This document shows positions 47,210 to 61,840 of a stretch of 64,000 nt of DNA, piece after piece. Under the pieces are notes generated by a model. It saw only the letters and a program-made list of their open reading frames with translations, was not told the DNA's origin and searched no databases. The translations under genes and the position numbers were made by a program. This DNA is from Blastocatellia bacterium (GTDB lineage: Bacteria > Acidobacteriota > Blastocatellia > RBC074), in assembly GCA_035275345.1 (NCBI GenBank), contig DATEMY010000594.1, positions 7,084-71,083 of the forward strand. The letters run 5' to 3'. Numbering within the stretch: position 1 is the first letter of the stretch; every line of letters begins with the position of its first letter.

Positions 47210-47368
47210 CTTAACCGTGGAGCCTAACTAATGAGGGAAAAGAGAGATTACGGAACAAACGGAAATAACGGAACAGACTGAAGATTTTCATTTTTTTCAG
47301 TCTGTTCCGTTATTTCCGTTTGTTCCGTAATCTCTCTTCGACCTGGTCTGACTCCCTCCACGGTTAAG
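47210..47368. repeat. Nested palindrome: perfect 42-43-bp stem with a 13-nt loop, flanked by an outer 13-bp inverted repeat
   Basis: Segment 47241-47282 (AGAGAGATTACGGAACAAACGGAAATAACGGAACAGACTGAA) is the exact reverse complement of 47296-47337. The arm contains three 9-nt units (CGGAAMAWA). The outer IR is CTTAACCGTGGAG (47210-47222) with CTCCACGGTTAAG (47356-47368). Confidence 0.9.
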
Positions 47369-58500: not shown

Positions 58501-58821
58501 TTCGCCGAGAATACGGCGCAACAACAAACTCTTTCCGGCCTCGCCGGGGTTGATCACCGCGCCCGAGATCCCGCCTTCGAGCGCCGACTTCCTGTTGTCG
58601 AGCCGCAACTGGCCCCGCGCGATCTTAGACCCATGACATTTATAACAGGCCGCTTCGAATATGGGCCGAATGTCGCGCGCGAAATCGATGGTTTGACTGG
58701 CGGCGGAGCCACCGAAGAACGGCGCGGACGCCGCGCCCAAACAAAAGAGGCAGAGCAGTAACTTGCCTCTATTCTTCCACATTCTTACGGGACGCTTCAT
58801 AAGCCAACTTCTCAAAGTCAT
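55576..58821 (-). CDS. PSCyt1 (c-type haem CxxCH), DUF1549 (PSCyt2) and DUF1553 (PSD1) domain protein
   Basis: The protein has a signal peptide and the haem motif ACYKCHG. The DUF1549 region is [19 protein letters not shown]...[12 protein letters not shown]. The segment [19 protein letters not shown] follows. The DUF1553 tail is [12 protein letters not shown]. The true start may be MKRPVRMW at 58800. Confidence 0.9.
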
Positions 58822-59261
58822 TTTGTGTGGTTCATGTCAGTACGAATAGACAATGCTATCCGCCGTTGAATTTCTTCTATTCGAGTCGGATTCTTGAGAA
58901 TTAAATCCGGATTTCTGACGATGGACAGGCTGGATCTGAACTTCTCATTGACTAATGCCTCTTGCTCAACGCGCTCAATAAACTCTTCCGAGTTGCCATA
59001 GAGTAAGTCTTCCAGAGGACCCGCTCCGATGTAGCCAAGCGCATCGTCATCTGGAGCAGCGGCCACCAGTTCTTTGATGAACTCCCATTTCTGCTCCGCG
59101 TCTAACTCCCACTCCATTCTTATCGCCCATCTTCGGCGCTTAAGCCAGGCTTCCACCACGGTCACAGCGTTGACCTCTCGCCGCCCAACTTTGTATTTTC
59201 CTTTGTTGTTCATGCTTACTTCAAATCGCCATTTGCTCTCTTTGATCCTAAAAATCTCCAC
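58818..59261 (-). CDS. Hypothetical small protein (AT-rich gene; possibly DUF6869-like)
   Basis: The ORF is 147 aa with a GTG start; an alternative ATG (MNNKGKY) lies at 59213. Its stop overlaps the ATG of the downstream DUF1553 gene in an ATGA arrangement (58818-58821). A recognisable motif is LGYIGAGPLEDLL. The family assignment is from memory and weak. Confidence 0.5.
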   Translation of the reverse strand: MEIFRIKESKWRFEVSMNNKGKYKVGRREVNAVTVVEAWLKRRRWAIRMEWELDAEQKWEFIKELVAAAPDDDALGYIGAGPLEDLLYGNSEEFIERVEQEALVNEKFRSSLSIVRNPDLILKNPTRIEEIQRRIALSIRTDMNHTK

Positions 59262-59306
59262 TCATTCGTCGCTGCGGCGACTGGACGATCGAGCTGGCGC
59301 CCTTGG

Positions 59307-59332
59307 CGGCGTTGATGGCCTTTGAGAAATAA
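59307..59332 (-). promoter_or_regulatory. Conserved upstream motif, copy A (CGGCGTTGATGGCCTTTGAG-AAATAA on the plus strand)
   Basis: The core is 19/20 identical to 61730-61749. Both copies lie roughly 45-70 nt upstream of minus-strand start codons (59261 and 61681). Confidence 0.4.
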
Positions 59333-59353
59333 ATGCAACCAGGTGGGGGCAAC

Positions 59354-59665
59354 AGCCTATGGAGTGCGGATTCTTGGGATACTGCTGGCAAACTCTCTGA
59401 TTCCCTAGCGCCAGCGGCGCGTAATGTTTATAGAACACGTTACGCGATAGTTCTCCAAGCTCCGTAGGAGCGATATGTGCTGGATGTCGCTCCTACGGAG
59501 CTTGGGAGAATTGCCTGTCGGGTTCTATAAACATCGCGCTCCTACGGAGCTCGGGAGAATTGCCTGTCGGGTTCTATAAACATCGCGCTCCTACGGAGCT
59601 AAGAGCCTGGAGACTCATTTTCTGAGTTTGCCAGCAGTATCCCAAGAATCCGCACTCAATAGGCT
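59354..59665. repeat. 312-bp composite palindromic element: 42-nt terminal inverted repeats enclosing an inner hairpin and 49-bp tandem repeats
   Basis: The TIRs are 59354-59395 and 59624-59665, with 1 mismatch. The inner stem is TTCTCCAAGCTCCGTAGGAGCGA (59451-59473) with TCGCTCCTACGGAGCTTGGGAGAA (59487-59510) around a 13-nt loop. The 49-bp unit GCTCCTACGGAGCTYGGGAGAATTGCCTGTCGGGTTCTATAAACATCGC occupies 59489-59537, 59538-59586 and a partial copy to 59600. Confidence 0.9.
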
Positions 59666-59785
59666 TCGCCGTTCATGATCTGAATTGCGCATCTCCCAAT
59701 ACTGAGATTCCTGGCCGCGCTTTTTTCTCAAAGCCCATCAACTCCGGGGCAAGCTCAAACGCCGCAACGCGGCAATGGAAAATCT

Positions 59786-60733
59786 TCATTCGTCACTCAT
59801 TCCGCTCGCCAGGGCTCGAATGTATGCGGCGTTACACCCGCAACATCCGCCGACATAGCCGATGCCTTCGGTCTTCGCCATGCGACCGAAGTCAGAGAAC
59901 TCTTCCCTCGACACCTGGATGGTCTCCAACTCGTCCGGGAACTGGGGGAGACGCGTGAAGCACGGAGTCTCGTCCGTAGCTCGGAACGCCGCTGGCTGAG
60001 CCGCCAGCGGAACCTCGACCGCCGCGCGCATCTCGCGCAGCGCTATCAACATTCTCTTCGGCTCCTGCTCGCAGTTGGCCCCCACCACATGAGCGCCGGC
60101 CGTCGCCATCTCGCGGGCGCATTCGGCCGGAGAATGGCCGTCGCTCGATTGATCGCGCCTGGGGCGGAAGCTCATCGTGGCGATCAGCGGCAAACCGCTC
60201 GCGCGCGCGCATTCGAGCGCGATCAACATCTCCTCGAGGTGGAAGAAAGTCTCGAGTATCAGAAAGTCCACGCCGGCTTCGGTCAGCAAGCGTGTCTGCT
60301 CGGCCAGCAGCTCGCGCACGAAGTGGGCGACCCCGCGCCCTTCGCGCTCGAAGAGCTGCGTTCGCGAGATCGATCCCGCCACAAGCGCCTTGCCGTCCGC
60401 CGCCTCGCGCGCGACCCGCACCGCGTTCTGGTTGATCAGCTCGGTCTCGGCGCCGTAGCCGGCCCGCTTCAGCTTCTCGCGCGTGCCGAAGAATGTCAGC
60501 GCCTGCAATACCTGCGACCCGGCGCGTAGAAATTCGAGGTGCAGTTGGCGGAGAGCGTCAGGATGCTCTATCGCCACTTCGGGCGTGAATTGCCCACTGC
60601 CGCGCCCAGTCCCCACCTTCTCTCGCTTCGAGCCGCTGTCAACATAACCGCGCCGTTCGAGTTCAATCAGATAACCTCCATCTCCGAGCACGATCCCTCG
60701 CTCTTTGATCAAGGTCAGCACATCTGTCTGCAT
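59786..60733 (-). CDS. Homocysteine S-methyltransferase family protein (BHMT-like)
   Basis: The Hcy-binding domain reads GDGGYLIELERRGY, EHPDALRQLHLEFLRAGSQVLQALTF, VGANCEQEP, and the zinc-site motif VGGCCGCNAAYIRAL. Confidence 0.85.
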   Translation of the reverse strand: MQTDVLTLIKERGIVLGDGGYLIELERRGYVDSGSKREKVGTGRGSGQFTPEVAIEHPDALRQLHLEFLRAGSQVLQALTFFGTREKLKRAGYGAETELINQNAVRVAREAADGKALVAGSISRTQLFEREGRGVAHFVRELLAEQTRLLTEAGVDFLILETFFHLEEMLIALECARASGLPLIATMSFRPRRDQSSDGHSPAECAREMATAGAHVVGANCEQEPKRMLIALREMRAAVEVPLAAQPAAFRATDETPCFTRLPQFPDELETIQVSREEFSDFGRMAKTEGIGYVGGCCGCNAAYIRALASGMSDE

Positions 60734-61681: not shown

Positions 61682-61729
61682 GAGTCCTTGGTCCTTTATC
61701 GTTTCGCGAATCGGCTATTGAGCTTAGAT

Positions 61730-61756
61730 CGGCGTTTATGGCCTTTGAGTAAATAA
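61730..61756 (-). promoter_or_regulatory. Conserved upstream motif, copy B (CGGCGTTTATGGCCTTTGAG-TAAATAA on the plus strand)
   Basis: See copy A. This copy lies ~50-75 nt upstream of the ROK start (61681), in the 159-nt gap after the oxidoreductase gene. Confidence 0.4.
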
Positions 61757-61840
61757 CGCGACAAAGCTGCCTCGACGGAAGTCAGGCCATGGGAGAAAGC
61801 ATTGCCAATTGCGCACTACGCATTGCGCATTGATTTGCTA

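Follow-up and report, generated by a model that had tools for sequence, protein, structure and literature searches.

The question raised by this locus is what kind of element fills the spacer between two minus-strand genes of a Blastocatellia genome, and which mobile systems could have assembled the inverted repeats of which it consists. The spacer lies within the 64,000-nucleotide stretch of DNA that was analysed (the window) and runs from the start, at 59261, of a DUF6869 gene (58818-59261, minus strand) to the stop codon, at 59786, of a homocysteine S-methyltransferase (BHMT-like) gene (59786-60733, minus strand), which abuts the palindrome. The original prediction was of a 312-bp MITE-like composite bounded by 42-nt arms. 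An inverted-repeat search recovered both arms (59354-59395 and 59624-59665), which are 98% complementary with one mismatch and enclose 228 nt, and the 28-nt core of the arms has 2 exact matches in the window against 0 expected. The arm-bounded element is therefore real, but the palindrome does not end at its arms, inverted symmetry continuing outwards through a further pair of arms (59307-59343 and 59710-59746, 81% complementary) to outermost hairpins at 59268-59281 and 59760-59773. Given these outer arms and hairpins, the real object is the entire 524-bp spacer (59262-59785), which is one nested palindrome of three layers. The neighbouring feature first described as a shared promoter-like motif is an arm of the third, outer palindromic repeat (O type), and the likeness in arm length to palindromes at 47240 and 50633 involves no sequence kinship, the arm core being present nowhere else in the window.

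From left to right, the outermost layer begins with the hairpin GTCGC-TGCG-GCGAC (59268-59281), the left end of a repeat whose unit resembles Acido-Lenti-1 and whose hairpin, linker and O arm recur together at other loci. The left O arm (GTTGATGGCCTTTGAGAAATAAATGC..., 59307-59343) forms the long stem of this repeat by pairing with the right O arm (59710-59746), also delimited by the inverted-repeat search. Fused directly to the left O arm is a MITE end of IRR type (59340-59395, plus strand), which contains the left 42-nt arm. The left REP-like unit (59408-59476, minus strand) follows, composed of the hairpin GCGCC-AGC-GGCGC (59408-59420), the box ATGTTTATAGAAC (59424-59436) and the hairpin GCTCC-GTA-GGAGC (59459-59471). 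Beyond the central loop of the inner palindrome (59477-59484 in the inverted-repeat search) lie the right REP-like units (59485-59600, plus strand), with hairpins at 59489-59501, 59538-59550 and 59587-59599 and the box GTTCTATAAACAT at 59522-59534 and 59571-59583; canonical copies have one unit and the final hairpin here. The second MITE end, of IRL type (59624-59695, minus strand), comprises the right 42-nt arm and an outer IRL part (…CGCCGTTCATGATCTGAATTGCGCATC), and the degenerate hairpin CGCCGC-AA-CGCGGC (59760-59773) closes the outermost repeat on the right, intact units of this type being found at the orthologous site of a related genome (G001).

The inner palindrome that had been predicted is present, but its arms (59455-59476 and 59484-59505, 22 nt, 95%, 7-nt loop) are slightly narrower in extent than the stem first given for it (59451-59473 with 59487-59510 around a 13-nt loop). 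The hairpin 15-mer CGCTCCTACGGAGCT occurs 4 times in the window against 0.19 expected. Two large asymmetries interrupt the palindrome: its right arm is longer by about 35 bases, and it contains the tandem unit. No ORF longer than 58 aa lies inside the element. The predicted single-stranded DNA fold of 59300-59750 has an energy of -136 kcal/mol (z = -16 relative to shuffled sequences).

The element belongs to a dispersed family. By BLAST, 52 loci match in the 11.6-Mb, 703-contig genome (the window copy and 51 others, which are 78-94% identical to it), many lying at contig termini, where such repeats break the assemblies of metagenome-assembled genomes (MAGs). The genome-wide search that the original prediction had proposed thus revealed a multicopy family, both here and in three genomes of the same genus. 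Matches are present in 23 of the 41 related genomes compared (7/7 in the genus and 18/24 in the family), the named relatives being Blastocatellia and Pyrinomonadaceae MAGs, and the most widely conserved part is the inner doublet (59406-59551). No open frame of at least 150 aa crosses the midpoint of 74% of the loci, compared with 8% of random sites. Given that copies are only 78-89% alike, the window copy is most likely an old and now immobile fossil.

The 42-nt arms match the ends of an insertion sequence (IS). Public genomes were scanned with the 19-nt arm core, and in a Blastocatellia contig from a genome of the same genus (L176, equivalent to G007:C48) a pair of arms, oriented inwards as in the window, encloses one 559-aa ORF with the domains DUF772 and DDE_Tnp_1_6, which scores 308 bits on the NCBIfam IS1182 model (cut-off 270). 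Both terminal inverted repeats (TIRs) of this IS can be aligned with the window arms over approximately 45-50 columns, and the outer, non-identical parts of the arms correspond to the left and right ends of the IS. The outer IRL motif GCATAAATC..GGCGGAGCC is common to the intact IS and to MITEs of G001, G006 and G007, and in G001 a partial transposase adjoins an arm. Among the related genomes compared, the arms are confined to the window's own genome (G000), G001, G006 and G007, always in pairs approximately 230-280 bp apart, and G002 and G004, which are rich in the interior units, have no arms. In G001 and G006 the arms enclose the same REPIN-like doublet as in the window. The MITEs of G007 have the same arms around an unrelated interior of GACGACTGA-type periodic hairpins (L329, L330 and L331, equivalent to G007:C436, C266 and C472), indicating that the arms are the constant, mobilised part, and a single IS lineage appears in this way to have captured different palindromes.

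Judged from sequence comparison, the 312-bp piece is a real MITE, extending more fully over approximately 59340-59695, and its parent is probably of IS1182 type. The MITE-like character first proposed is supported by the alignment of the arms with both TIRs of an intact IS, by the lack of an ORF and by the multicopy distribution. The original prediction had named an identifiable parent IS as a ground for its own refutation; with the IS1182-family IS of a same-genus genome as such a parent, the element is by this rule ordinary rather than new. In common with MITEs of IS1182-family elements, it is short, ORF-free and bounded by the TIRs of an autonomous IS, of which an intact copy exists in a same-genus genome, and its relatives are multicopy, mostly intergenic and divided into subfamilies with common ends and different interiors. 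It differs from them in that the window interior is not IS-derived, being a complete REPIN-like doublet from an unrelated transposase, in that the left end of the window copy is fused to another repeat, and in that neither a target-site duplication nor a partner IS in the assembly was seen.

Target-site duplications are reported to be variable or absent in the IS1182 family. No direct repeats were found at 15 copies of the element, and same-genus genomes offered no empty site for the intact IS, so that the exact termini of the IS are not fixed. The prediction that no transposase is nearby and no target-site duplication is visible was correct at this locus. An IS1182 transposase of this lineage was not found in the window's own assembly by tblastn, which returned weak matches (39% over 99 aa), but this assembly is 89% complete and in 703 contigs, and a copy could therefore be unassembled. 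Two fragments lying 3 kb apart on contig C506 have no transposase between them. In Candidatus Chloroploca (Chloroflexota; L160, L162 and L166) the 19-nt arm core occurs at several loci as inverted pairs 183 bp apart, which could be related MITEs; alternatively, the core may be a motif conserved at the ends of this IS lineage.

The MITE interior is inverted relative to the non-identical outer ends in C609, C534 and C353, as compared with the window copy, C631, C446, C101 and C89. This difference is most simply explained by flipping of the interior through recombination between the near-perfect 42-nt arms.

The interior itself leads to a different enzyme. A Pfam Y1_Tnp search of the genome located a gene for a 158-aa Y1 protein (G000:C85:15737-16213), which is flanked by two of the BLAST loci. 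Only one copy of the gene is present, its nearest other relative in the genome being 38% identical, and its product has an HUH motif (DHVH) and a catalytic-tyrosine region, its nearest solved structures being IS608 and ISDra2 TnpA. The gene flanks are inverted copies of a 62-nt two-hairpin unit, in the order hairpin GCTCC-GTA-GGAGC, spacer of about 20 nt, box CTATAAACAT and second short hairpin, and this is the same unit as the left REP-like unit of the window, also found beside orthologues of the gene. Joined without the gene, the two flanks are exactly the inner palindrome of the window. The 42-nt arms are absent from these flanks, which speaks against a single enzyme having moved all layers. 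The other Y1 loci in this genome do not resemble any layer of the element.

The association between gene and hairpins extends well beyond this genome. Among 80 orthologue loci fetched from Acidobacteriota, Bacteroidota, Verrucomicrobiota, Ignavibacteria and Planctomycetota, most have hairpins in inverted orientation near both gene ends. Covariation of the second hairpin is seen over 58 flanks, each of its four variable stem pairs having between 9 and 24 double changes and no more than 8 unpaired cases; none of 500 shuffles reaches the observed covariation score, and slid controls are approximately 40% paired. Of the 23 related genomes that have the units, 10 were found to have an orthologue of the gene, and no orthologue was found in the 18 without units. 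This co-occurrence is only suggestive as the genomes are kin, and G002, which is assembled in 9 contigs and has 30 matches but no Y1 orthologue, is a real exception. Of the 57 hairpin clusters in the window's genome, 29 have arms and 28 do not, the arm-less clusters being canonical doublets of approximately 200 bp, bracketed by GGTTTCTACA and TGTAGAAACC, with the same architecture as those inside arms. From these comparisons, the interior is most probably a REPIN-like passenger derived from a different, Y1 (HUH) transposase. The 13-mer motifs of the unit were absent from the literature searched.

Several features of this interior are shared with the REP/REPIN-RAYT systems, REPtrons and BIMEs (Nunvar 2010; Bertels & Rainey 2011, PMC3116915; Ton-Hoang 2012; Di Nocera 2013, PMC3733652), including a single-copy Y1/HUH gene flanked by inverted copies of a hairpin repeat, extragenic dispersal of that repeat as inverted doublets and tandem clusters, hairpin stems kept by compensatory changes and the presence of a GTA(G) motif. 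The enzyme, however, falls outside the RAYT clades (30.4 bits on NF047646, NCBIfam REP_Tyr_transpos, against a cut-off of 80) but exceeds the threshold of the IS200 model (NF033573, 69.8 bits against 55); the unit is 62 nt long with two hairpins and a CTATAAACAT box, and GTA is here the loop of a hairpin, not an unpaired 5' tag. It also differs from the IS200/IS605-derived PATE, which have distinct left and right hairpins in subterminal positions on the same strand, whereas the two end units described here are inverted copies of one another.

The protein has the signatures of TnpA_Y1 subclass 1.2, as defined by Quentin, Siguier, Chandler and Fichant 2018 (PMC6006769), an assignment made by signature rather than with the models of those authors. 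It agrees with that subclass in its length (approximately 150-160 aa), in its DH[VI]H, WQ and Y...Q..HH signatures and in its low copy number. No REP or terminal structures are listed for subclass 1.2 in that work (PMC6006769), whereas most of the orthologue loci fetched here have inverted hairpins at both ends, adding evidence that IS200-like genes of subclass 1.2 have cognate hairpin repeats.

The 49-bp tandem at the right side of the interior was predicted with 2.3 copies and one mismatch, and was found as such at 59488-59600 with 98% matches. Its copies are one base apart, and since they are 98% identical as compared with 78-89% between family members, the tandem is a young, local event. 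Slippage between the identical 15-nt hairpins at the two ends of each unit, or unequal exchange between them, could have produced it. Similar amplification is seen at other loci, including C609 and a locus with five 46-bp units (L043). The latter lies upstream of an orthologous Y1 gene (L043:1254-1485, from G017), where the unit is present in approximately five tandem copies with a 46-bp period.

Taken together, the arms and the interior favour a reading of the locus, to which a probability of roughly 0.8 is given, as an old, gene-less MITE of IS1182 type that carries a REPIN-like passenger of Y1 hairpins and lies inside a third palindromic repeat. The MITE layer (59340-59695) would be non-autonomous, its ends being the TIRs of an IS1182-family (DDE) insertion sequence. 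MITEs move when a transposase, supplied in trans, binds both ends. The second layer (59408-59599) would be an inverted doublet of the 62-nt terminal units of the Y1/HUH cassette at G000:C85:15737-16213, presumably recognised as hairpins in single-stranded DNA, and such units occur on their own at about 25 further loci. In the third layer the O arms and outer hairpins would constitute an Acido-Lenti-1-like host repeat, in the sense of a repeat that harbours another, with the MITE at its centre. The anatomy, the copy numbers, the matches of the arms to an intact IS and of the interior to the Y1 flanks, the empty sites and the hairpin covariation are observed; the enzyme responsible for each layer, the nesting order and the slippage are inferred. 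The locus is then of an ordinary kind, consisting of a MITE whose parent IS can be identified and which has a passenger of REP type, with nesting that is unusually deep. A striking palindrome is thereby explained as layered mobile DNA rather than as a new system. It also suggests that a MITE can spread the putative recognition hairpins of another transposase: about half of the hairpin clusters of the genome lie inside MITE arms, and the copy counts of REP-like repeats therefore need not mirror the activity of their own enzyme.

A broader version of this reading is tentative. It proposes that an Acido-Lenti-1-like repeat carries an IS1182 MITE that itself carries a REPIN of Y1 subclass 1.2, that the layers amplify their passengers and that the tip of a long hairpin is a preferred landing site. 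If true, this would be a general growth route of 'onion' palindromes in Blastocatellia genomes, and, at odds with how it has been described in print, subclass 1.2 would represent a RAYT-like system that spans phyla and has an almost unvarying DNA hairpin.

The outermost repeat bears on how this particular copy reached its site. O-module matches number 28 in the genome, and the O-type repeat is also present with other interiors. In many Acidobacteriota MAGs, O pairs lie 80-590 bp apart (approximately 80 loci); the O arms were also considered as the ends of another IS, but there is no pair of transposase size among these loci, all being within 80-590 bp. The junction AACCAGGTG.GGGCGAC, in which an O arm is fused to a right-type MITE end, is common to at least 7 loci, and the O[MITE]O block may itself therefore have been copied. 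In the window copy the outer part of the left MITE end has been replaced by this O-arm junction, so that the copy may have spread as cargo of the outer repeat and not through its own ends.

It is accordingly possible, if on balance doubtful, that the outermost repeat (O arms and outer hairpins) was the last unit to transpose, with the MITE and REPIN carried along. The normal outer IRR motif (CTTGAAATGGCGAC) is missing from the shared junction at those loci, O-type elements with other interiors exist and G001 has outer-type units at the orthologous site, all of which speaks for this reading. However, no enzyme has been linked to the O-type repeat, G006 has a solo MITE end without O arms at the orthologous site, and identical junctions would arise if the MITE strongly preferred the O hairpin as its target. 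Elsewhere in the window, a half O-type copy is found at 61714-61840, upstream of a ROK gene, with an O arm (61730-61756) followed by GCATTGC heptamer repeats, and full O-type copies with the same interior occur at C283 and C58 of the same genome.

The outermost layer is built similarly to the Acido-Lenti-1 motif, a candidate RNA (Rfam RF01687; Weinberg 2010, PMC2864571), both having a hairpin, a CTAA.A.C box and a short GC hairpin. The RF01687 covariance model gave no match in 58800-60200 at E<=1 and none in the window at E<=0.01, and Acido-Lenti-1 is best regarded as a sister family rather than as the window repeat's own. The model has 35 matches in the genome, often as inverted pairs. A second Y1 gene of subclass 1.2 (G000:C50:6605-7051, YIANQEEHH) has inverted hairpin units of its own on its flanks. 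One of these units is matched by RF01687 (C50:6498-6542), directly upstream of this second gene, and the catalogued RNA motif appears to be a terminus of a Y1 cassette at the DNA level.

A function for the host, either as an RNA hairpin with a role in termination, stabilisation or processing between the BHMT-like gene and the DUF6869/PSCyt operon, or as a protein-binding cruciform, would agree with the position of the palindrome between same-strand genes, with its very stable predicted fold, with the covariation of its hairpin stems and with the cataloguing of a sister unit as a candidate RNA. Comparison of orthologous sites makes such a function unlikely, as G007 and G006 have intact flanking genes at the site without the palindrome. 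In G007 only about 21 bp separate the BHMT stop from the PSCyt start; the spacer in G006 is approximately 130 bp, including the solo MITE end, and that in G001 consists of 322 bp of outer-type units. The search for empty sites suggested by the original prediction was thus productive, both at the window site (G007) and at another family member, C351, where the site is empty in G001 and G006 and the two genes are 6 bp apart. The approximately 21 bp in G007 and the 6-bp gap at the C351 site indicate that these repeats insert into very short intra-operon spacers. A scan of the locus for promoters and terminators found no signal above chance, the Rfam search returned spurious hairpin matches of microRNA type with no Acido-Lenti-1 and no Flavo-type motif, and the family behaves as dispersed selfish repeats.

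The DUF6869 gene does not belong to the repeat. It lies between the BHMT-like gene and the PSCyt/DUF1549/DUF1553 gene, its stop codon overlapping the start that follows. Among the 41 related genomes only 2 were found to have it, and it is absent from the site in G001, G006 and G007, indicating that it is a sporadic accessory gene. It was considered as cargo of the element and rejected, being single-copy and present elsewhere in G001 without these repeats.

The analysis started from a model in which the Y1 enzyme moves all layers, the whole palindrome being a pure element of REPIN/BIME type and the arms an extended stem. The interior units do flank a single-copy Y1 gene, the lack of a target-site duplication is as expected for HUH enzymes, and copy-specific variants are common to both arms of a copy in 20 cases, compared with 4.6 when partners are shuffled. 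This model was dropped and is now very improbable, since the arms bound a DDE transposase gene of the IS1182 family in G007 and also enclose an unrelated interior there, by which it is largely refuted; the flanks of the Y1 gene and the unit-rich genomes G002 and G004 lack the arms as well. That the element is a unique local duplication or an assembly artefact has next to no probability, since, although the genome is a fragmented MAG, the 51 other loci and the homologous copies in independent assemblies refute this of the complete element, if not of the number of 49-bp units.

A separate observation was made near the Y1 gene, where a hairpin with arms of GGGCAAAA-type tandem octamers (L032:2981-3060, from G000:C85) represents a 'periodic-arm hairpin' class.
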